In this document: one piece after another, positions 8,756-27,085 of the stretch
Position numbering within the stretch: the stretch's first letter is position 1
How the letters are laid out: the number at the start of each line of letters is the position of its first letter
The notes under the pieces: generated by a model
What the model was told of the DNA's origin: nothing
Databases searched by the model: none
The model's input: only the letters and a program-made list of their open reading frames with translations
Assembly (NCBI RefSeq): GCF_000008665.1
Contig: NC_000917.1
Span: 1,800,001-1,832,000 of the forward strand
DNA from: Archaeoglobus fulgidus DSM 4304
GTDB lineage: Archaea > Halobacteriota > Archaeoglobi > Archaeoglobales > Archaeoglobaceae
Direction: 5' to 3'
DNA: 32,000 nucleotides
Made by a program: the position numbers and the translations under genes

Positions 8756-9454
8756 ATGTCACCAGATACCGAGGAACAAACTGGCTTAACGATATACCTC
8801 TACCCTGTGATTGCATGGATAATTCTGGTCACAAAAATTGAAAGTGGGTTGAGGACAAGGACCTTCCCAGTAGTTCACGGAGATGAAGGCAACAATTTAA
8901 TACCACTTCCAGAAGACGTGAAAAACATCCGAATCGTGCAATCATGGCCCGACACTTTTCTGGCCAAGGCAACTGTTGGAGCTGAAACCATAGATATGGG
9001 AATTCACGTATCTCCAGATGTTGAAGCCCTTAAAAAGGAAGCTATCGAGCTTATAAAGCACAAGGGTTCCCTGAGAAAGGCCAAAAAGGATGCTGAAAGA
9101 GAAAGTATAGTTAGTGGCTGGTTCCAATCGAAATTCCAATCAGAACTGTTAAATCTCAAAAAAGGGTGGAGAATAAGGGGGATAGTGAGAGCTGAATCTC
9201 CAGAATCAAAAACTCTTTTCAACATCGAGCTTATCAAGAGAGTTGAGAGGAGAAAAGACGCCAGCCATTTACGAAGTGGGGTGTTCACACCATATCAAAA
9301 ATCGAGAATAGAAGACATACCTCTCTCACAGAGAAAAATTGAACCCGGAGAAGTGGATGTTCCCATACCTTACGACGGAATATACAGAATTGCCATCAGT
9401 CCGAACGTAAAAACCACCTACTTCGTTGAGCTCTTTGTTGAAAAAGGGTCTTAG
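8756..9454 (+). CDS. Hypothetical protein (232 aa) with one N-terminal hydrophobic helix
   Basis: Long ORF in an A/T-rich islet. It has a TATA-like element at the leaderless distance. The hydrophobic segment is LTIYLYPVIAWIILVT. I recognise no family motif. Confidence 0.5.
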   Translation: MSPDTEEQTGLTIYLYPVIAWIILVTKIESGLRTRTFPVVHGDEGNNLIPLPEDVKNIRIVQSWPDTFLAKATVGAETIDMGIHVSPDVEALKKEAIELIKHKGSLRKAKKDAERESIVSGWFQSKFQSELLNLKKGWRIRGIVRAESPESKTLFNIELIKRVERRKDASHLRSGVFTPYQKSRIEDIPLSQRKIEPGEVDVPIPYDGIYRIAISPNVKTTYFVELFVEKGS

Positions 9455-9463
9455 GATTAAGGG

Positions 9464-9497
9464 AGGGGCCCGATAGATTTGAACATCGAGGAGACGG
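9464..9497 (-). other. Decayed copy of a tRNA 3' half (T-arm plus acceptor 3' strand), same orientation as tRNA-Pro 0.9 kb away
   Basis: AGGGGCCCGATAGATTTGAACATCGAGG aligns with the tRNA-Pro plus-strand sequence TGGGGCCGCCGAGATTTGAACTCGGG (10355-10380). It shares a 6-mer GGGGCC and a 10-mer AGATTTGAAC at identical spacing. It cannot fold into a complete tRNA. Confidence 0.5.
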
Positions 9498-9597
9498 ATG
9501 AAGGTTATGTAGCTCAGGCACTGGGGCACTCAATTTTTACACTTGAAGTAAAGAAGGATAAAGGAGCAGGCAGTCTTGTCGTAAGCTTAATAATAAG

Positions 9598-9605
9598 TTT
9601 TATAA
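9598..9605 (+). promoter_or_regulatory. TATA box (TTTTATAA) for vapBC
   Basis: Centred about 28 nt upstream of the vapB ATG at 9630, consistent with a leaderless or near-leaderless transcript. Confidence 0.4.
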
Positions 9606-9629
9606 CCTTCACATCGAAATTCATACCTA

Positions 9630-9890
9630 ATGGTAAGAACGAGAACTGTTGGCAAGAAGGGACAGGTTACAATTCCAAAAGAGATCAGGGAAAAGTTCGG
9701 TTTGAAGGAGGGTGAGAAAGTCGTCTTTGAGATTAGAGGAGATGAAATCATCTTGAGACCGGAAAAAAGCGGAAGAGATTATGTGGAGGAGCTTACTTCA
9801 ATCATTGAGAAGAAGCTTGAAGCACCAGAACCTGCTGAACTGAAGAGGTTGTACTATGGACAGATTGAAAAGCGCGTATCTGGACTCTAA
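9630..9890 (+). CDS. vapB: AbrB/SpoVT-family antitoxin (VapB-type)
   Basis: 86-aa ORF with the swapped-hairpin motif GKKGQVTIPKEIREKFGLKEGEKVVFEI. It overlaps the downstream PIN gene by 35 nt. Confidence 0.8.
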   Translation: MVRTRTVGKKGQVTIPKEIREKFGLKEGEKVVFEIRGDEIILRPEKSGRDYVEELTSIIEKKLEAPEPAELKRLYYGQIEKRVSGL

Positions 9891-10269
9891 TGTTTTCATT
9901 TATGCAACGCTTTACTCGGGAAAGACTGCCGAAAAATCGAAGGAGTACCTCTTAAGAGCTTCAGATGGCGAATTCAACGCATTTACATCAACGCTTACGT
10001 GGGATGAAGTTGTGTATGTCGTAAGAAAAGTTGCTGGAATAGAAGAAGGCATTAAAGCTGGAGAAATTCTGCTTAAAATGCCATTCATTGAGTTTCTGGA
10101 TGTTGATTTTGCTGTTTGTGAAGAAGCCCAGAAGCTTGCTGAGAAGTATAATCTATTGCCGAGAGATGCAATTCATGCTGTCCTTGCCCTGAAATACTGC
10201 GATGGTGTGATTATTAGCAACGATGCAGATTTCGATGTTGTTGATGGACTGAAAAGAATGTTTGATTAA
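9856..10269 (+). CDS. vapC: PIN-domain ribonuclease toxin (VapC-type)
   Basis: 137-aa ORF with the N-terminal YLDSNVFIYA (first catalytic Asp). It also has later conserved acidic residues (LPRDAIHA, ISNDADF) typical of PIN domains. Confidence 0.8.
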   Translation: MDRLKSAYLDSNVFIYATLYSGKTAEKSKEYLLRASDGEFNAFTSTLTWDEVVYVVRKVAGIEEGIKAGEILLKMPFIEFLDVDFAVCEEAQKLAEKYNLLPRDAIHAVLALKYCDGVIISNDADFDVVDGLKRMFD

Positions 10270-10354: not shown

Positions 10355-10428
10355 TGGGGCCGCCGAGATTTGAACTCGGGTCACCGGCTCCCAAAGCCGA
10401 GAGGATCACCAGGCTACCCTACGGCCCC
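10355..10428 (-). tRNA. tRNA-Pro (anticodon UGG)
   Basis: The reverse complement is GGGGCCGTAGGGTAGCCTGGTGATCCTCTCGGCTTTGGGAGCCGGTGACCCGAGTTCAAATCTCGGCGGCCCCA (74 nt). Folding by hand gives a 7-bp acceptor stem, a D arm GGGT/ATCC and an anticodon stem TCGGC/GCCGG. The anticodon loop is TT-TGG-GA (G37) and the T arm is CCGAG-TTCAAAT-CTCGG. No CCA is encoded. Confidence 0.93.
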
Positions 10429-18407: not shown

Positions 18408-18947
18408 GAAGCCATTCACGGTTATCGTGTCAACCTGCATCTCGTACTTTTTGCTGTAATACTTCTCGTAGAGGTATTTCAGCAGATTGAGGTGAAGCTC
18501 GGAGACTGCTTTGCTCCTCATGTCGTGGTAGAAGACGAAGTTTAGCTTCTCCCCATCCTTCTGCACTTCAGCATGCTCCGCCCTGTTCAGCAGATTCCAG
18601 AGCCTTGCCACAACGCTGAGAAGCTCCTCAAAGTCGAGGTCGCTTATGGGCTTCTTTGAAAGATACTTGACGGCCATCTCGATCATACTCTCCCTTACAG
18701 CCCTCTCAGCATCTCCCTCAACCAGTGCGGTGTAGTGGTCCTTCGCACAGAGCATGAAGTTGAGCTCCCTGATAAAGGCTAGAATCAACAAATCCTCATC
18801 TCCCAACCTGCTGAAGTTCTCCGAGGTGTAAAGCAAATCCACTGCTTTCTCAACAACGCTGCTTGTGGTTCGATGCTTTTTCTTCAAATCCTCAATTTTT
18901 CTGGCCGTTTCAGATGACACTGTGGTATGGAGCCTGATTTTTACCAT
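18372..18947 (-). CDS. Ribbon-helix-helix (CopG/Arc-like) N-terminal domain protein with an uncharacterised roughly 140-aa C-terminal domain
   Basis: 191-aa ORF. The N-terminus VKIRLHTTVSSETARKIEDLKKKHRTTSSVVEKAVDLLY fits a strand-helix-helix pattern. It is divergent from the actin-like gene, and its 3' end overlaps the convergent ADH gene by 36 nt. Confidence 0.55.
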   Translation of the reverse strand: MVKIRLHTTVSSETARKIEDLKKKHRTTSSVVEKAVDLLYTSENFSRLGDEDLLILAFIRELNFMLCAKDHYTALVEGDAERAVRESMIEMAVKYLSKKPISDLDFEELLSVVARLWNLLNRAEHAEVQKDGEKLNFVFYHDMRSKAVSELHLNLLKYLYEKYYSKKYEMQVDTITVNGFSVLFFPKDSVD

Positions 18948-18967
18948 GGTTTTTATCCTCCCACTCC

Positions 18968-19000
18968 CTTAAAAACCTATCCCGAAGAAATTTTTTATAT
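18968..19000. promoter_or_regulatory. Back-to-back TATA boxes in the 72-bp divergent region (minus-strand TTTTTAAG at 18968-18975; plus-strand TTTTTATAT at 18992-19000)
   Basis: Each element is centred about 24 nt from its start codon (ATG 18947 minus; ATG 19020 plus). This implies two leaderless transcripts from a compact shared control region. Confidence 0.5.
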
Positions 19001-19019
19001 TGGCAAATGTACTGAAAAC

Positions 19020-20018
19020 ATGCAGCCTGTTGGTCTTGACATTGGCACGAACTACACCAAGATTACGGCGGATGGGAAAAATGTTCTGCTTTACCCCTCA
19101 ATCGTAGCTTACGGTGAGGAGAAGGACTGGAGCCTTAAGGGAGAGACGAAGAGCGTTTATATCGGTGATGAAGCTTTGTCCATAGTTCAGTCTATGGAGA
19201 ATGTTGAAGTTCTCCGACCCCTTCACGAGGGCAGGGTTCTGCATACATCCTACCTCGAACTTGCGAAATACGGTCTGAACAAGCTCAAAGTGAAGGACGG
19301 CCTAATAGCGACCGGACTTCCTGTTAAATCGTCAAAAAAGGAGAGAGAAGAACTGAAAAGGGAGCTGGAGTCTGAGCTAAACTCAAAGGTCCTGATATTT
19401 CCGGAGCCTGTCGGAACCATGGCCTACATGGGAATGGAGACCGGAGTGTGCGTGGATATTGGCTTTGGAACGACCGATGTTCTCGTGATTGCGGACATGG
19501 AGTATTTAAAGGGAGACACGATGCTCATGGGCGTTGACAAGCTCTACGAGAATTTGGAGGTAGCTGTGAGAAACAGGATAGGAATAAGCATCACTCCGGA
19601 AGAGATGACGAAGCTTCTCACAACCGAAGGCTACGAAATTGGAAGAATAAGGGGTGGAAAGAAAGTTAGCGTCAGCAGAGAAGAGATCATGCCAGAATAC
19701 GAAGGCTACGTCAAAACCTGGGTGGAGAGAATTGCGAGCAGGGTCAAGCTCGTTCTTGAGGGGCTCTCGACAACACTTGTGGAGAACTTTGCAATAACAG
19801 GCGGTGGAAGCATGCTGCCCGGAGTTTACGAGATGTTCAAGGAAAGCTTCAGCGATATTGGAGACGTCAAAAGACCGGATGAACCGATAAAGGCGAACTC
19901 CATTGGATACTACATCCTTGCGAAGTCTCTTGTAGTAGAGGCTGAGACGGAACAGAGTGGCGATGCCGAAATTCTCGATGCAGATGACAAAAAGAAGGGG
20001 AGGAAGGGCAAGAAATGA
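19020..20018 (+). CDS. Actin-fold ATPase, ParM/StbA-like (archaeal actin-like protein)
   Basis: 332 aa from ATG 19020; the track ORF starts at 18927, but that extension crosses the promoter. Actin-fold motifs appear in order: phosphate-1 GLDIGTNYTK, IATGLPV, FPEPVGTMAY, phosphate-2 CVDIGFGTTDV, adenosine ITGGGSMLPG, and ANSIGYY. The C-terminal tail is charged: [13 protein letters not shown]. Confidence 0.7.
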   Translation: MQPVGLDIGTNYTKITADGKNVLLYPSIVAYGEEKDWSLKGETKSVYIGDEALSIVQSMENVEVLRPLHEGRVLHTSYLELAKYGLNKLKVKDGLIATGLPVKSSKKEREELKRELESELNSKVLIFPEPVGTMAYMGMETGVCVDIGFGTTDVLVIADMEYLKGDTMLMGVDKLYENLEVAVRNRIGISITPEEMTKLLTTEGYEIGRIRGGKKVSVSREEIMPEYEGYVKTWVERIASRVKLVLEGLSTTLVENFAITGGGSMLPGVYEMFKESFSDIGDVKRPDEPIKANSIGYYILAKSLVVEAETEQSGDAEILDADDKKKGRKGKK

Positions 20019-20542
20019 AGATAACCGTAGAAATTCCGCCTGACATGGAAAAGCTTCTGGTGAAAAAGTGCGAGGAGTCAGGAGTATCTCCTTCGGAGTT
20101 CGTGTACCTCCTTCTTGAGTGGTATTTCTTCAAGAGGGGCAAGAAGGCAGAAACAACTGGTGAGCTCAACGAGTTCCTCAGAGTGGCCAAGGAAGTGGCT
20201 GACGAAAGAGTGAGGTTCTGCAAGTTCAGCGATGGAGCCTACTGCGCCATTGAAACCTTCGAAGATGTGTTTTCCGATAAAGAGCCCACGCCCATCTCCC
20301 CATACCGCTGCCTCTTCTGCCTTTACTATGTGGACAAGAGAAAAGATAAAAGGAGAACGGAGTTCAGGGAGCTGACTGAAGCCAAGATGTACGATTTGGC
20401 AAAGATCGCTGCAAAGTTTGTAGTGGAGCTCTACGGAGACAGGCTCGGCTACAGGCCTAAAACGAAGTCTGAGGAAATAGTGGAGAAACAAGAGAAAAAG
20501 GATGAGAAGCTCCCCAAGGTTAAGAAACTTCTCGATTGGTAG
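20015..20542 (+). CDS. Ribbon-helix-helix protein with a central four-Cys motif (possible ParR-like adaptor)
   Basis: 175-aa ORF with an ATGA start/stop overlap with the actin-like gene. The N-terminus [37 protein letters not shown] fits an RHH. The central region has C-x7-C (CKFSDGAYC) and CxxC (CLFC), and the C-terminus is Lys/Glu-rich. Confidence 0.55.
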
Positions 20543-21398: not shown

Positions 21399-22423
21399 GA
21401 GATGTTGTAAGATTCATCAACCCCTACGACCCCGGGCTTTTCCCCGAGGATTTTCCCGACAAAGAGGTTGTCAACCTTTCTTCAAACGAGAATCCTTATG
21501 AGCCGAGCGAGGAGGTTAGGGAGGCTTACCTTAGGGCTGTGAAATACATTCCAAGATATCCTAAAGCGGACTACGCCCGGCTGAAAAAGGCCCTTGCAGA
21601 ATACACGGGCTTTGAAGTTGAAAACATAGCTGTGGGATGTGGAGCATCTGAGCTAATTTCCTGCATCTGCAACGTTCTGCTGGAAGAGCTGGACAGGGTT
21701 GTCATTCCAATGCCCTCCTACACCCTCTACTCCATCTATGCAATGTTGCGGAGCGCATCCATCAGCTTCCCGGTTTTTGAGGGATACAGGGTTGATCCTG
21801 ACGTCATCGCCGAGGAAAGGCCGAAGCTCGTTTTTCTCTGCTCTCCCAACAACCCAACGGGCAACAGCCTGAGCAGAGAAATCGTTCAGAAGGTGGCTGA
21901 GAGTGCGGAGTACGTTGTGCTGGATGAGGCCTATGTGGAGTTCAGCGATGATTCAAAGATTGAGATGGTTAGGGATTACAACAACCTGATTGTGCTGAGA
22001 AGCTTTTCCAAGTTTTTCGGGCTTGCAGGAATGAGGGTTGGTTATGCTGTCTGCAGTGCGGAGATTGCTGAGGCAATTGAGAAGGTAAGGCTGCCCTTTG
22101 GTATAAGCTATCCTGCAGTTGAAACGGCAATTGCCGCTTTGAGGTCCTTGGATTACTACAAAAAAGTAAGGGACAGAATCGTCAGGGAGAGGGAGAGGCT
22201 TATTGAGAAACTGAAAGAAATTGAGTGGCTTGAAGTTTACCCGTCAGATGCCAACTTCGTGCTTGTAAAGGCGAACAAGGAGGGCGTGGTAGAGAAGCTG
22301 GCCGAGAAGGGGTTTATTGTGAGGGATGCAAGTGTTATGGGCCTTGAGGGTCTGTATATTCGCATTACAGTGGGTAAGCGAGAGGATAATGACAGGCTGA
22401 TTGAGGCCCTAAGAGAAATTTAG
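21395..22423 (+). CDS. Histidinol-phosphate aminotransferase family, paralogue 2 (could equally be an aromatic aminotransferase or CobD-type decarboxylase)
   Basis: 342-aa ORF with [26 protein letters not shown] and the [18 protein letters not shown]-lysine block. It overlaps the LLM gene by 4 nt. Confidence 0.8.
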
Positions 22424-22965
22424 AAGAGGTCTTCAGCCTTTATAATCTCAACGCCGTCAACCTTCATCTTCCTGTCGCTAACGACCTTTGCTTTCAGCTT
22501 TTTTGCAGCAGCAATGCTTTCTGCAAGCTCAACACCGTGATTTAGGTACTTTGCAACCTCTTCATCAGAAACGTCAACTATTTCGAGATTCATCCTTGCT
22601 CCAACTTTTGGTGGGAGGTTTCGGTAGCTCTGCCTTGTTATGTAAATCTTTCCGCCGTAATTCCTCTTCATCAGCTCCATAACACCCTTTGAATCCGCCA
22701 CGATTCTCGTGGGCAGCTCGGGCAGCGGCATTGAGAGCAGAATGTAAACTCCAGCGGTCATCAAAACCCAGATAGCAATGAGGGAGACTATTGCAACAAT
22801 TCCCCTCATAAACTCCTCAAGCCTTATTACATTGAGAAGGACGAGGGCGAGGAAGCCGAATAGCACGAAGGAGGTTGAAATGAGCACAGCAGCAATGGTG
22901 TCTCTCCTCTTCACTTCTTTCACCAGTTCCTCAAGCACCACTTCAAACTCATCCAAATCAACCAC
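22420..22965 (-). CDS. Membrane protein (2 TM) with a C-terminal cytoplasmic domain paralogous to the tail of the upstream 493-aa protein
   Basis: 181-aa ORF with a GTG start overlapping the upstream stop by 8 nt. TM segments are AAVLISTSFVLFGFLALVLLNV and IVAIVSLIAIWVLMTAGVYILL. The C-terminal domain contains the YGGKIYIT, DEEV and AESIAAA blocks. Confidence 0.6.
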   Translation of the reverse strand: MVDLDEFEVVLEELVKEVKRRDTIAAVLISTSFVLFGFLALVLLNVIRLEEFMRGIVAIVSLIAIWVLMTAGVYILLSMPLPELPTRIVADSKGVMELMKRNYGGKIYITRQSYRNLPPKVGARMNLEIVDVSDEEVAKYLNHGVELAESIAAAKKLKAKVVSDRKMKVDGVEIIKAEDLF

Positions 22966-24439
22966 CTCTCAACAGCAAGGGCACACATCCGTTCCTTACG
23001 GCTATTTCCGCCACCTCCTTTTTAGTCGTTGCCAGCGGCCTCTTTATCATAATCGCCGCAGCAATAGACTCTGCATGTTCCCTTCTCAACCCCATACCCA
23101 CGAACCTCTCAACCAGTTCTTCATCAGGCGTTATAATAATGCTTCCTGGCAACGCGTTTGATGGGGTGGTGTATATTCTTCTGCCATAAGCTCTCAGAAG
23201 AGCGTAGTTCTGGGCGTTGACGGCATCAGAGGTAACCACAACACCCCTCCTCGTCATTAAGGGGACGAAGACAATGGACATGAAGAGGGCGTAGGCTGCT
23301 GGTAGCATCATGGCTATGTATCCTTCAACGATTTCAGCAGGAATTTCGGGGACGGTTATTGCAGGCAGTGAAACGGATACCGGCAGAGAAATCGGCTGGG
23401 GTTGAGCTGGAGGTTGAACTGGAGGCTGCACTGGTGGTTGAGCGGGTGGTTGCACGGGCGGTAGCACTGGAGGTGGCGGGCCACCTCCACCACCTCCTCC
23501 GCCACCGCCGCCTCCGGGGGGCGTGAACTGGTAGCCAAGACCTTTCAGCACAGCTTCACCCACGATGTAGTTACCATCAGAAAATGTTGCAGGGAAAATC
23601 GTTACCTCGCACTGCCCTGCCAGCCTTGCCTTTGCCCTTGCGTAGAAAACGGGTGTTTTGTCACTCTCCACAACGCTCTGGAATGTTTTGTTCTCTCCTG
23701 CCGAAAGCTGGAAGGTTTCATTGTAAAGCGATTCTCTGTCGGTGAAGGTGTAGTCATCTATCTTCAGCACATACCACGCCTCAAAGCTAACATTCACATC
23801 CTGAGCGAGCGGGTTCTGAATGCGGAAGGTAGCATACCATTCATTTCCAGCTCTCTTCTTCTCAATTGAGAGAAGCAGCTCAACACCATACTCAACCGGC
23901 ACCGAGTCTTTCAGCTTGAATGCGAGAATTGAGTCGGAGATTTCACCTGAGTATCCTGACACGAGGATGGAGAAGGACTTCTCACCTCCAGCAGGGATGG
24001 TTGAGTGGAAGGTCAGCGTATCTCCAGCCTGACAGCCAATGCAGCTTAGAAAATTGGCAGGCTTTGGAATTTCAATGCTGACATCAACATCTCTACTGTA
24101 GCTGTTTTTGATGGTGTAGATGATGTTAACAGCCCCTCCCTGAAGATTTGCAGTGTGTGTGATTGAGAGGGGGAAATTTTGGGGGCTTAGCGTTTTGTAG
24201 GGGTCTATTTTGAGGTTGGAATTGGCTGGGATGAGAGGGATGTAAACGAAGTCGTTTCTGTAGGAGAGGTTAACGTCGTAGAGGTTGAAGGGGTAGGGGT
24301 TGGTGAAGTTGACAACCATCCAGTCCCTTCCGACCTCCTGAGTGGCATTGGGGTAAAAAACCACCTCCCTTATCTCGTAAATGCATGCCATTGAGGGATA
24401 AATCAGGAGGAGCAGGGAGAGAAAAGCCAAGAGTCTCAT
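22958..24439 (-). CDS. Type I membrane protein: signal peptide, beta-rich ectodomain, Gly12/Pro-rich stalk, TM helix and a roughly 110-aa cytoplasmic domain
   Basis: I place the start at ATG 24439 (MRLLAFLSLLLLIYPSMA, a signal peptide). This ATG forms an ATGA overlap with the upstream stop. The track extension to 24592 lies inside the upstream gene. The ectodomain has 6 N-x-S/T sequons and CARDB/DUF11-like strands (IPAGGEKSFSILV). The TM segment is GYIAMMLPAAYALFMSIVFVPLM. Confidence 0.65.
   Translation of the reverse strand: MRLLAFLSLLLLIYPSMACIYEIREVVFYPNATQEVGRDWMVVNFTNPYPFNLYDVNLSYRNDFVYIPLIPANSNLKIDPYKTLSPQNFPLSITHTANLQGGAVNIIYTIKNSYSRDVDVSIEIPKPANFLSCIGCQAGDTLTFHSTIPAGGEKSFSILVSGYSGEISDSILAFKLKDSVPVEYGVELLLSIEKKRAGNEWYATFRIQNPLAQDVNVSFEAWYVLKIDDYTFTDRESLYNETFQLSAGENKTFQSVVESDKTPVFYARAKARLAGQCEVTIFPATFSDGNYIVGEAVLKGLGYQFTPPGGGGGGGGGGGGPPPPVLPPVQPPAQPPVQPPVQPPAQPQPISLPVSVSLPAITVPEIPAEIVEGYIAMMLPAAYALFMSIVFVPLMTRRGVVVTSDAVNAQNYALLRAYGRRIYTTPSNALPGSIIITPDEELVERFVGMGLRREHAESIAAAIMIKRPLATTKKEVAEIAVRNGCVPLLLRGG
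23398..23521 (-). repeat. Coding low-complexity tract: PP-G12-PPPP followed by five PPxQ-type quartets (VLPPVQPPAQPPVQPPVQPPAQPQP)
   Basis: Hand translation of the minus strand. The twelve Gly codons span 23480-23515 with mixed GGN codons, followed by imperfect 12-nt CCNCCNGYNCAR repeats. Confidence 0.85.
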
Positions 24440-25137
24440 TTCCTCAACCCTAAGACAAGCAGAATCACAGCCAATGCGAGCAGCGCTCCCCAGAAGACCA
24501 CGTAACCCCTCACCGGCATCGCTGGTAAGGGCAGAAGCGAGAACTCTGCGGTAAAGAAGGCTATGCTTCCCGCTGGAAGACTTCCCTTCCACATGGGAGT
24601 GTTCTCTGCCGGCGGTTCTGCGTAGGTGAGCTTCCAGTCTGAGTTGACATTGATTTCGAGATTTTTGATGTCCGTGTCGGTGCCAAGGGGTATTGTTACG
24701 GACTTGAAGAGCAAGCCACTGTCAACGATGTCAGCATCATACTCCACGGTGAAGTTCAACTCCCCTTTCGGCTCTATGGGATACCATATCTCGTAAACAA
24801 TCAGCGTGTAGTCCTCCTTCTCCTCAACAGTCACCTTGAAGTTTCTGTTCTCGGAGTAAGCTTTGACATTATAAACCTTCACCGGCTTCCTCTCATCGGT
24901 AAAGGGGATGGAGAGAAAGCCAACCTTAACAGGCTCAGCTTTCTGGAGCCTTATCTCCCCAATACCCGGAACAACGGGCTTGTCAATCAGATTTTTAAGG
25001 GTGACGTCGTAGCGAACATGGGCGAGGGTATCAACATCAACAGTAATCTTGAAATTGGAAATTTCCTCAACCTTCTGAGCCTGAACGGTAGGCAAAATCA
25101 GCAGAAGCGCTATTACCACCCAAACCCTTGCCATCAT
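24436..25137 (-). CDS. Secreted, C-terminally anchored protein (233 aa), beta-sandwich-like
   Basis: It has a signal peptide MMARVWVVIALLLILPTVQA and a C-terminal TM segment YVVFWGALLALAVILLVLGLRK. It has no recognisable catalytic motif. Confidence 0.6.
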   Translation of the reverse strand: MMARVWVVIALLLILPTVQAQKVEEISNFKITVDVDTLAHVRYDVTLKNLIDKPVVPGIGEIRLQKAEPVKVGFLSIPFTDERKPVKVYNVKAYSENRNFKVTVEEKEDYTLIVYEIWYPIEPKGELNFTVEYDADIVDSGLLFKSVTIPLGTDTDIKNLEINVNSDWKLTYAEPPAENTPMWKGSLPAGSIAFFTAEFSLLPLPAMPVRGYVVFWGALLALAVILLVLGLRK

Positions 25138-25156
25138 GCTAAAAAAAGGGGAGAAA

Positions 25157-25166
25157 ATTTAAAAAA
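25157..25166 (-). promoter_or_regulatory. Internal TATA-like element (TTTTTTAAAT on the minus strand) plus a T7 tract between the 600-aa and 233-aa genes
   Basis: Centred about 24 nt upstream of ATG 25137. A CCCTTTTTTT tract (25141-25150) lies immediately after it. This suggests the large glycoprotein gene is terminated or attenuated here and the three downstream genes can be transcribed separately. Confidence 0.35.
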
Positions 25167-26969
25167 TTAACTTCTCCTTCTGTAACCCACAACTGCCGTC
25201 AACCCAACAAGGGCTGTTGCGAGAGCCATGACGGACTCGTAGCTCGTCGCCTTGGCACCGCTGACGAGGGTGATTTTTGGCGATGTCTGCTCGTTCATTG
25301 AGAGGATGGGGTCAATACCCACAATGAATGCGTCGAGGAGCTTGTAGTCTTCGCTACCCTGAATCTGGTAGAAGATTACGACTGTCTGGTTGTTTTCGAT
25401 TTCGGTGTAGTCGTCGTAAGCGCCATCCCCATCTGCGCTGGCGTTAATGGGGCGTATTCTCCACCAGTAACCGGTGTCGTATCCTGACAATTGAATGTTA
25501 GTTATAGTTTCAGGACCTCCAGCAAGCATAGAAGATTTGTTGACCCAGTCTCCATCCCTATCCTGCGGGTCTTTCCAGTCATTATCTCCATTGGTCAGTG
25601 AGAAATTCTTCGGAATCAGGTCGTAAACATAGACGTATGGTGATTCCTGCCCTCCAAGGTTCTCCACGACAAGGGTTATGTTGTAAATGTCATTGCCCGC
25701 TGACTCCACGTGCTTTGTAACCTTCACAAGGTAGCTGCCGATGACGTAGATTCTTTCGATGATGTAGGTGTTGCCACCGTCTGTGATTTTATCCTGCCCA
25801 ACTCCCCATCCGTAGTTGGCATCTTCAACCAGCCTGAAGGTCACGTTGCCCCAGATGATTGGGACTTTGTCATATTGGAAGCTAAGGTCTTTTGAAGTGA
25901 AGCTCTCATCCCTTCCAATTTGTACATTTACAGTTGTATTCTCGTATCTTGCGCCATTAATTTCATTGTAATTCCGATCAGTCGCCCACACCTTCACGCT
26001 CTTCACGATATAAGTAAGTCCTGTTGCAGTGTTCTTTATCGTAACATTCCCTGTCCACTGGTTGCTGTTATCAGGCCCGCTCTTGTTAACACCAATGCTC
26101 GCATTGCCGATTGCAAAGACGTCAATTATCTTTGTACCGCTGATGTTTCCGTTTATGGGTCCAAACTGGAAATAAGCTTCACCGAATCCGACCAGTCTTG
26201 ATACGAACGCTTCGTCTGTGGAGTAATTGCCTTTAACTTTGAAGGTCGTGGTTAACCATTTATTGTTGTCAAGAGTTCCACTTATTATTTGTTTAGGATT
26301 AGAACTACCATCCGCAAATTCTAAAGTCTTCCAGTTAGTGTCATAACTCGTATTCAAGTTCTTGTTCACAGTCAGGGTTACTGAAGATGGTTTGCCTCCC
26401 AACCCCGTGCTACTCCACCACGTATCATTCAGCGAAACGTTGAAGTAAACCGTCCAAGTGTAGTCTCCACCCTTAGGAATCTTTGCGGGGTCGTATTTCT
26501 CCTCTACGATGAAAGGTGCACCATTTTGTATTTCTGGTGTCTCGGTAACATCATAGGCAACGTATTTTGACTCTCCCGGTCCCAGCCTCGGTATGTGGAT
26601 AATACAATCTGCACCTGATGTATCAAATCCTCCCTCGTTTGTGAGTTTACTTGGCACATCGCCTGAATCTAGTATCTGAACGCCCGTTGATATTGCACTA
26701 CACGATCCATCATTCAACCCAATATCAACCGCCACCCAGATGTCCATTATATCCTCATTAGCATTGTTTGTCACATTGATAATCCCTTTAACATCCGTTT
26801 GATATTCAAAAGTCCCCACTCCGTTCGCCGCGTCAGTCATGTTTATCGTACTATTCACCCTCTCCTCGATGCTCACCTCTAATGGCGCCGCTGAAGTGTT
26901 AATGGTAATAATTGTGAGTACAATAATCATCGCTACGAGCCCTATTTTTCCCAATCTCCCAGCTGACAT
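25167..26969 (-). CDS. Large surface glycoprotein candidate (S-layer or adhesin-like), 600 aa, signal peptide plus C-terminal TM anchor
   Basis: I place the start at ATG 26969 ([28 protein letters not shown]), 26 nt from a TATA box; the track start at 27026 would include the promoter. My hand count finds about 18 N-x-S/T sequons in the mature part. The C-terminus is [21 protein letters not shown]. It is Asn/Thr/Gly/Tyr-rich, with no Cys pairs or enzyme motifs. Confidence 0.6.
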
Positions 26970-26990
26970 GCTCGTAATGGTGATAAGCAT

Positions 26991-27000
26991 ATATAAAAAA
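26991..27000 (-). promoter_or_regulatory. TATA box (TTTTTTATAT on the minus strand) for the surface glycoprotein gene
   Basis: Centred about 26 nt upstream of ATG 26969, giving a leaderless arrangement. Confidence 0.45.
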
Positions 27001-27085
27001 TTTTCGAGTTTTTGAATACATCGCAAATGAAGAATATAAACCCCACCGGAAACGTTTAATACTTCCTCGATTTTTTGATTCTGAA

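Follow-up and report, generated by a model that had tools for sequence, protein, structure and literature searches.

A cell-surface protein and anchor module of euryarchaea at AF_2025 to AF_2028 of Archaeoglobus fulgidus

The genes AF_2028, AF_2027, AF_2026 and AF_2025 of Archaeoglobus fulgidus DSM 4304, here called A, B, C and D, follow one another on the minus strand of a 32,000-nucleotide (nt) stretch of contig NC_000917.1 (positions 1,800,001 to 1,832,000), which is referred to as the window. They belong to a conserved, undescribed cell-envelope module of euryarchaea, a self-contained set of Sec-exported, β-rich surface proteins that are either membrane-anchored or anchorless. A, B and C start with Sec-type signal peptides (predicted cleavage after ASA, VQA and SMA, respectively), and at their C-terminal anchors a transmembrane (TM) segment precedes basic residues. 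D contains a pair of TM segments. N-X-S/T sequons number 19 in A, six in C, one in B and none in D, compared to 0-2 in the cytoplasmic proteins of the same window. Shuffled versions of A hold 7.7 +/- 2.5, and 0/2000 shuffles get to 19. All four are real genes, with homologues in dozens of genomes and ratios of nonsynonymous to synonymous substitution rates (dN/dS) of 0.06-0.23.

A first-pass annotation of this DNA had proposed four minus-strand open reading frames with envelope architecture and a sequon-laden A, which was borne out when coordinates, signal peptides and C-terminal anchors were checked. It had listed no enzyme, ATPase, pilin or archaellin motif, class III signal peptide or PGF-CTERM signal, in agreement with the Pfam and NCBIfam scans, in which all four proteins stay without a significant match. 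No class III signal peptide, pilin or archaellin model matches in either library, and the N-termini are of the ordinary Sec type. The PGF-CTERM/archaeosortase signal has no NCBIfam match and no PGF occurs in the C-termini of A, B and C. The S-layer family models (S_layer_N/C, DUF1608, csg, SlaA/SlaB) yield no Pfam or NCBIfam match to A, B or C at E <= 1, and Rfam detects no RNA family in the region. The further statement that no described system accounts for these genes stands after the Pfam and NCBIfam scans and a literature search: AF2025-2028 and MJ1393-1396 of Methanocaldococcus jannaschii led to unrelated papers only, and the module is without prior description in the searched literature. 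The arCOG-based annotation in the 2014 supplement of Hocking et al. reads “uncharacterized conserved protein.”

The extent of the module was determined with a scan of the B alignment against one genome per GTDB species, which gave 32 loci. These loci, earlier context loci and a later locus of Methanocaldococcus vulcanius were searched with local hidden Markov models for A, B, C and D. Of 29 loci with an upstream flank of 2 kb or more, 26 have A beside B: on a shared strand it lies 24-100 nt upstream, and where the two are divergent the distance is 100-450 nt. Downstream of B, a protein whose ectodomain resembles C is found wherever the flank reaches far enough (33/33 loci), and also in M. vulcanius. 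Outside of the Archaeoglobaceae, a giant signal-peptide protein of about 900-2900 amino acids (aa) is encoded between B and C. The gene junctions are short or overlapping, and the giants show Pfam matches to Beta_helix, Big_7, Big_9, L-type lectin and MG2-like domains. This B-giant-C arrangement occurs in Hydrothermarchaeota (including Ca. Pyrohabitans), Methanoculleus/Methanogenium, Methanosarcina, anaerobic methanotrophic archaea of clade 2 (ANME-2) and Methanocaldococcus, and within the Archaeoglobi a giant also lies between B and C at locus L016. M. vulcanius has the order A(608)-A'(980)-B(243)-giant(2895)-C-like(501). In M. jannaschii, a frameshift splits B, and the order is A-A'-B-giant (MJ1393-MJ1394-B-MJ1396) as far as the DNA was examined. 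Between B and C, a giant is missing from the genus Archaeoglobus and from most Archaeoglobaceae; in L007 (Archaeoglobaceae), the giant comes after A, and B-C-D is divergent from A. D is limited to the Archaeoglobi (20 loci). The conserved unit is A, B, giant and C, to which D is an Archaeoglobi-only addition. At this locus, A. fulgidus carries a reduced form without the giant, extended by the lineage-specific tail of C and by D. The flanking genes vary by lineage (transporters, purL, RecQ, a glycoside hydrolase and others), and no ATPase, protease, glycosyltransferase (including AglB), secretion or regulator gene in these flanks travels with the module. Because the flanking genes differ between lineages, the module is regarded as self-contained.

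These comparisons bear on the possibility that four unrelated envelope genes are neighbors by chance in a single genus. The Archaeoglobus neighborhood is syntenic throughout, including the unrelated hisC-2, the DHH/TrkA gene and POR, so genus-level synteny alone proves nothing. Against chance stand the A-B and B...C linkage in five distant lineages with unrelated flanks, the start and stop codons that overlap or nearly touch, a domain common to A and the giants and another common to C and D. Since the linkage crosses lineages, chance adjacency is in effect excluded and carries a negligible residual probability. The original proposal that the genes belong together holds for the A-B and B...C pairs, which are kept in five archaeal lineages (Archaeoglobi, Hydrothermarchaeota, Methanomicrobiales, Methanosarcinales and Methanocaldococcus), but the quartet is not the conserved unit.

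The link between A and the giants lies at their C-terminal ends. A is composed of the signal peptide, about four β-sandwich domains, a domain called AF2028_C, a conserved linker, a TM segment and the terminal residues RRRS. AlphaFold2 models were made of the monomers of A and of C. The model of A (45-sequence alignment, predicted local distance difference test (pLDDT) score 69.7) is all-β with about four sandwiches, followed by a low-confidence stretch at residues 545-592 (pLDDT < 50) and a terminal helix. The AF2028_C domain terminates in FIVGIDP (residues 548-554). A homologous domain makes up the final ~100 residues of the giants (hhalign probability 98.2%, E 4e-14). In M. vulcanius and in most of the 14 other giants whose C-termini were examined, [IV]VG[VI]DP or something close to it precedes the stop codon by 1-7 residues, and the alignment with A runs up to the DP. 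Most giants stop one residue past it, and the L033 giant has the degenerate ending TVGMFS. No TM segment comes after the motif in the giants, whereas A continues with its linker, TM segment and arginines. As A and the giants share an AF2028_C-like domain, the module pairs proteins bearing that domain with B and C.

Homologues of A comprise 67 cluster representatives, in Archaeoglobaceae and Methanocaldococcus. Precomputed matches place PF27409 (AF2028_3rd) on 67/67 of them and PF27408 (AF2028_C) on 63, including P0002, which is 94% identical to A. A is evidently the founding member of these new Pfam families, which are named after AF_2028, and its membership by proxy through the homologues is near certain. 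Both families are of unknown function and describe domains of A only; they cover neither the gene module, nor B, C or D, nor the C-terminal domain of the giants. Our own scan of A at E <= 1 found no NCBIfam family, and no Pfam family either, the latter because the scanned Pfam library lacks the PF27409 and PF27408 models. A phmmer search of PDB sequences with A and C gave nothing meaningful, only low-complexity noise from the Gly-rich stalk, and the ectodomains of A, B and C have no detectable homology to one another. Between strains DSM 4304 and DSM 8774, B is 100% identical and A only 86%, where it is annotated as a 508-aa protein. The G+C content of the A gene is low (43.5% at 26001-27000 vs ~49% around it). 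Strain divergence and low G+C could be signs of a surface antigen or virus receptor that undergoes diversifying selection or recombination.

Table 1. Positions of the module genes and their elements in the window
Feature	Position	Strand	Remarks
Gene A (AF_2028)	25167..26969	-	600 aa from ATG 26969
Gene B (AF_2027)	24436..25137	-	233 aa
Gene C (AF_2026)	22958..24439	-	493 aa
Gene D (AF_2025)	22420..22956	-	probably 178 aa from TTG 22956
Gene D, alternative	22420..22965	-	181 aa from GTG 22965
Putative archaeal promoter of A	26990..27006	-	B recognition element (BRE)-like CGAAAA 27001-27006; TATA box TTTATATA 26990-26997
A-B spacer, 29 nt	25138..25166	-	T6 right after A stop; TATA-like TTTAAATTTT; T7 three nt before B ATG
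IVGIDP motif of A	25308-25325	-	G[IVLM]DP in 45/45 aligned A homologues
Linker of A, conserved but unstructured	25236-25307	-	alignment and low pLDDT
TM anchor of A	25182-25235	-	C-terminal end of A
Gly/Pro stalk of C (residues 308-366)	23342-23518	-	disordered in AlphaFold2 model
TM segment of C (residues ~368-395)	23255-23338	-	helix in model
Cytoplasmic α/β tail of C (residues ~396-493)	22961-23254	-	folded at 400-490 in model

B has a signal peptide, one β-rich ectodomain, a TM segment and a basic tail that ends in LLVLGLRK. Its family is marked by an invariant PVVPGIGEIRLQ loop (N-L-I-D-K-P-V-V-P-G-I-G-E-I-R-L-Q) and by the motifs YEIWYPIEP and TAEFSxLPLP. Within the module, B is conserved most strongly and forms the hub. 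A first search found 65 representatives, and an exhaustive profile search of 1.84 billion proteins raised this number to 94, nearly all of 220-260 aa and none > 373 aa. With only 94 proteins found, B forms a small closed family. A UniRef label assigns AF_2027 and one relative to DUF2207 (PF09972). This identity was checked three ways and is unsupported: the DUF2207 model does not match the 32 aligned B-family members even at E 10, and one distant relative (P0247) matches its N-terminal domain at E 0.006 with 17.2 bits, below the cut-off of 24.4. DUF2207 proteins have about 500-650 aa, in which a series of TM segments and a long C-terminal region follow the N-terminal domain. B resembles them in its N-terminal signal peptide and extracytoplasmic β domain followed by a TM segment, and differs in its 233 aa and single C-terminal TM segment from these longer, multi-TM proteins.

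Further features of the B family concern its history. B of A. fulgidus has ~42-48% similarity to the Methanocaldococcus proteins, 45-49% to those of Hydrothermarchaeota and ~30% to those of Methanosarcina. In the GTDB, Methanosarcina is closer to the Archaeoglobi than Methanocaldococcus or Hydrothermarchaeota are. The order of similarity set against this kinship therefore suggests a horizontal transfer of the module among hydrothermal-vent thermophiles. In M. jannaschii DSM 2661, B is broken into frames of 84 and 132 aa in different reading frames (L004 14887-15596), and in M. vulcanius it is intact with 243 aa (L040 13077-13808). The split is either a real frameshift or pseudogene or an error in the 1996 genome sequence. 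In the metagenomic protein P0077, a complete B continues into the first half of C; this B-C fusion most likely stems from a frameshift or a wrong gene call where the two genes overlap in ATGA.

C is a type I membrane protein. Its signal peptide is followed by a β-sandwich ectodomain (residues ~20-305), and its model (10 sequences, pLDDT 72.8) shows stacked β-sandwiches at 20-305, mostly with pLDDT > 85. The Gly/Pro stalk and cytoplasmic tail named in the first-pass annotation are recovered in the AlphaFold2 model. Part of the stalk is encoded by a 12-nt tandem repeat at 23395-23473. A word-indexed search with full-length C found 11 proteins, all from Archaeoglobus, as the Gly/Pro stalk probably swamped the candidate list; wider relatives were recovered with local jackhmmer on the loci fetched with B. 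AF_2026 itself has no Pfam match, and CARDB, DUF11 and NPCBM_assoc are found only in C-like orthologues. A Methanosarcina protein matches DUF11 with 26.1 bits (cut-off 24.6), and a C-like protein of a related archaeal metagenome-assembled genome (MAG; locus L024) matches CARDB with 26.5 bits and NPCBM_assoc with 62 bits. Cys19 of C (24380-24385) is invariant in Archaeoglobus C proteins and lies directly after the predicted cleavage site (..A|CIYE), and these proteins share the conserved C133, C136 and C277 as well. The cysteine after the cleavage site is not present in the C-like proteins of other lineages. The conserved cysteines may form disulfides or be part of a non-canonical lipobox. The C-like proteins of L027 and L030 (Methanoculleus and a related MAG) have a PKD-like motif (WDFGDGTTS...) past the hydrophobic helix, so that in them the helix may not anchor the C-terminal end, or else the topology is unlike that in Archaeoglobus.

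D consists of an acidic N-terminus, a hairpin of two TM segments and a cytoplasmic tail (22423-22734) that is homologous to the tail of C. The relation between both domains, claimed from the start, is confirmed by hhalign with a probability of 92.6% over C 363-473 and D 48-166 (E 4.5e-7) and 95.2% for the tails alone (E 2.6e-8). D therefore looks like a duplicated TM-plus-tail of C on a membrane hairpin. The start of C overlaps the stop of B in an ATGA at 24436-24439, as had been annotated. The 8-nt GTG overlap proposed for C and D at 22958-22965 is doubtful: sister Archaeoglobus species open D with an ATG at a conserved MDE[FL]E, 4-5 nt past the C stop, and this start aligns with TTG 22956, 1 nt past the C stop in the window. 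The resulting 178-aa protein is the RefSeq form. By this alignment, TTG 22956 is most likely the start of D rather than the overlapping GTG; C and D are tightly coupled with either one.

The tails of C and D raise the question of what they do at the inner face of the membrane. A profile of 20 C/D tails yields nothing significant against PDB and Pfam, and no signalling, nucleotide-binding or enzymatic family. PIN proteins in the PDB reach only E 0.2-1.5, and Pfam stays empty. A PIN-like fold, considered for the patterns “VVDTE ... EDADILAAA,” was rejected because the matches are insignificant and the candidate acidic residues vary and are wrongly spaced, so that the fold is left unassigned. The tail domain is missing in the C-like proteins of Hydrothermarchaeota, which have tails of 24-27 residues, and of Methanomicrobiales, which makes the tail an accessory and not the core function. 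These results bear on the first-pass suggestion of an outside-in link, in which the C ectodomain would sense contact and the C and D tails would relay it to the cytoplasm, or the reverse. Such a link would suit the type I topology of C, whose conserved cytoplasmic domain is folded and recurs in D on a membrane hairpin, and Methanosarcina C-like proteins have a long cytoplasmic tail that is weakly similar to that of C (E 6e-4, probability 28%). Nevertheless, the suggestion is unsupported and improbable: the best PDB and Pfam matches of the tail profile are heterogeneous as well as insignificant, the tail is absent from the two lineages mentioned and no regulator gene is conserved nearby.

Transcript levels set A apart from its neighbors. 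Table S3 of the microarray study by Hocking et al. 2014 gives expression in five conditions as multiples of the mean. AF2028 reads 3.0-3.2x the mean in all five, compared to 3.2-3.5 for dsrA, 1.2-1.9 for AF2027, 1.1-1.5 for AF2026 and 0.6-0.9x for AF2025. The authors define > 3x the mean as highly expressed, and none of the four genes is differentially regulated. Expression of A is constitutive and high, that of B, C and D close to the average. All four genes are expressed, but with A at ~3x the mean and B-D at 0.6-1.9x, A is probably a separate transcription unit that is expressed much more strongly; in some Archaeoglobaceae it is also divergent from or unlinked to B-C-D. The putative TATA box of A, read from the sequence with the archaeal promoter consensus, lies 20 nt upstream of ATG 26969, and its mRNA would be leaderless or have a short leader. 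The position of BRE and TATA box supports the 600-aa start. The 29-nt spacer between A and B, with the TATA-like stretch and T7 that had been pointed out in it, can be read in the sequence as described. Its pattern TAA-TTTTTT-AAATTTT-C..C-TTTTTTT-AGC-ATG is almost invariant in seven other Archaeoglobus genomes, in which A is 43-70% identical. We infer that the spacer is a candidate T-tract terminator or attenuator for A, combined with a TATA-like internal promoter for B-C-D; the drop in expression from A to B fits this arrangement. Selection also differs along the locus. Measured against close relatives, A has a dN/dS of 0.23, B of 0.06-0.08, C of 0.10-0.20 and D of 0.075. From the low values, it follows that purifying selection keeps B, C and D although the locus lacks a giant between B and C. 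Among close genomes, A changes the fastest, with 70% identity vs 91% for B and 85% for C (L008).

Beyond D, the plus-strand gene hisC-2 (AF_2024) ends at 22423 and D at 22420, so that their stops overlap convergently by 4 nt and leave no space for a terminator between both transcription units. Further away, 18927-20542 (+) holds the actin-like ParM/MreB-family gene AF_2021 (annotated mreB), which overlaps AF_2022 (175 aa, function unknown). Other Archaeoglobus genomes (L001-L003) have this pair in the same position, close to the module. AF2021 reads ~1.8-2.1x the mean and, as an actin homologue in a coccoid archaeon, may merit separate attention. A tRNA-Pro(TGG) at 10355-10428 (-) is the sole Rfam or ARAGORN match in the window and lies in a low-G+C stretch (41.8%, 9001-10000).

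High expression and rapid divergence make A a reasonable candidate for the S-layer gene of A. fulgidus. In the stronger form of this idea, A itself would be the lattice-forming glycoprotein and B, C and D its anchoring or spacing partners, as SlaB is for SlaA, a possibility that is held with low confidence. A is constitutively expressed at a level close to dsrAB, combines its 19 sequons with a C-terminal linker and TM anchor, diverges fastest between strains and has a homologue in most Archaeoglobaceae loci examined. On the other hand, the A family also occurs in Methanosarcina and Methanocaldococcus. The S-layer proteins there (MA0829/DUF1608 and MJ0822, respectively) belong to families other than A. 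Because it coexists with these, the A family as such is not an S-layer family. Neither a Pfam nor an NCBIfam S-layer model matches, the 50 best Foldseek matches hold no solved S-layer protein, and values of 2.7-2.9 are reached in the same arrays by functionally unrelated genes such as AF2029. The searched literature assigns no S-layer gene to A. fulgidus; in it, electron cryotomography shows a ~11 nm S-layer standing ~13 nm above the membrane. A linker of ~25 residues in A and a stalk of ~60 residues in C would be of the right order to fit the space below such a layer.

The reading that is preferred here takes the locus as the Archaeoglobus version of the module, in which B and C form a base that holds AF2028_C-domain proteins at the cell surface. 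It is held tentatively, with a probability of about 0.45. All parts would leave the cytoplasm through Sec and receive N-glycans from the general machinery. B, short and membrane-proximal, and C, with its β-sandwiches and ~60-residue Gly/Pro stalk, would be made in coupled amounts, and as single-pass anchored proteins they would provide the membrane-bound base. An anchorless giant would depend wholly on this B/C base, and A, being self-anchored, would touch it via its C-terminal domain and conserved linker. In Archaeoglobus, the main client would be A, an abundant, fast-evolving, heavily glycosylated envelope protein and S-layer candidate. The Archaeoglobi-specific tails of C and D would probably pair at the inner membrane face, where they could stabilise or position the base. 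Several observations weigh against this reading. Foldseek comparisons of the A and C models with the PDB return generic tandem β-sandwich proteins only (TM-score < 0.3), and the C/D tail domain is without an assignable fold family. A and B-C-D lie on different contigs in one Archaeoglobales genome (L006, the same assembly as L011), and L026 and L036 show no A within ~10 kb upstream of B. The array intensities are transcript data on a compressed scale.

Part of the same evidence would also suit a transient role, in which B and C act as assembly or folding factors (pseudo-periplasmic chaperones or export escorts) for AF2028_C-domain proteins. The translational coupling of B, giant and C, the invariant surface-loop motif of B, which is unusual for a purely structural sandwich, the self-anchoring of A, by which a base is not strictly needed, and the expression of B-D well below A all fit such factors. 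They are nonetheless unlikely, as B and C have no chaperone, protease or isomerase signature, anchorless giants would need another attachment or be released, and the long stalk and sequons of C suggest a standing surface component. Returning to B and C as a base, a bolder version sees the module as a widespread archaeal mounting system that has gone unrecognised, with AF2028_C and its VG[VI]DP end as a sorting or docking tag that the base would read to tether giant adhesins and the major envelope glycoprotein alike; in Archaeoglobus it would anchor AF_2028 as the S-layer protein, with the paired C and D tails connecting to the cytoplasm. This version is put forward as a speculative extension that is rather unlikely in its entirety. 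The role of the tag would resemble that of PGF-CTERM or S-layer homology (SLH) domains, but the docking would be non-covalent and protein-based.

How surface proteins are attached is largely unknown for most archaea beyond haloarchaea and Sulfolobales. AF_2025-AF_2028 offers a concrete candidate, a highly expressed, glycosylated anchored protein with two conserved membrane partners; in methanogens, ANME-2 relatives and Hydrothermarchaeota, these partners are found together with giant adhesin-like proteins. Should B and C turn out to serve as a general base on which a C-terminal tag docks, this would be a new principle of archaeal envelope organisation. It would also help to display proteins on archaeal cells and to study how cells touch one another and minerals in methanogenic and methanotrophic consortia. 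Otherwise, a well-delimited family of unknown function remains, with a clear experimental entry since Methanosarcina is genetically tractable.

Among the known systems, donor-strand-exchange fibres (tafi, threads, bundling pili) are likewise encoded by clusters of Sec-exported β-sandwich proteins without an ATPase. A link to tafi-like fimbriae was considered and rejected. The tafi-like cluster of A. fulgidus lies at another locus (AF_2076-AF_2083) with a dedicated signal peptidase (TafD) and DUF1102 and DUF5305 (TafG) proteins, and TafD, DUF5305 and DUF1102 are not found in A-D. As A, B and C are individually membrane-anchored, the role of a polymerising subunit does not fit.

LapA with LapD/LapG is a bacterial retention system for a giant adhesin. 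It is similar by analogy only, in that a giant repetitive or β-helical surface protein stands beside membrane proteins, one of which has a cytoplasmic domain. There is no homology, A-D contain no protease, c-di-GMP-binding, HAMP, GGDEF or EAL domain, the archaeal envelope has a single membrane, and A. fulgidus has no giant at the AF_2025-AF_2028 locus.

The anchored euryarchaeal S-layer glycoproteins (Haloferax/Halobacterium csg, Methanococcales, MA0829) come closer. With A they share the signal peptide, many sequons, an all-β multidomain build, the linker-TM-basic end and high constitutive expression. A differs in its lack of homology to S_layer_N/C, DUF1608 and csg and of a PGF-CTERM.

In the Sulfolobales, SlaA is the outer canopy protein and SlaB a membrane-anchored coiled-coil stalk protein, with their genes side by side. 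No sequence or fold-level match connects them with A-D. The stalk in C is Gly/Pro-rich and not a coiled coil, two anchor proteins and D are present instead of one, client proteins are marked by the shared C-terminal VG[VI]DP domain, and a lattice here would be hypothetical. Common to both are adjacent genes for a large glycosylated surface protein (the anchorless giant or self-anchored A) and for smaller β-sandwich proteins with a stalk and C-terminal TM anchor (C and B), without dedicated secretion or energy-supplying genes. In function rather than homology, the SlaA/SlaB canopy-and-stalk pair and the anchored euryarchaeal S-layer glycoproteins are the closest analogues of the module.

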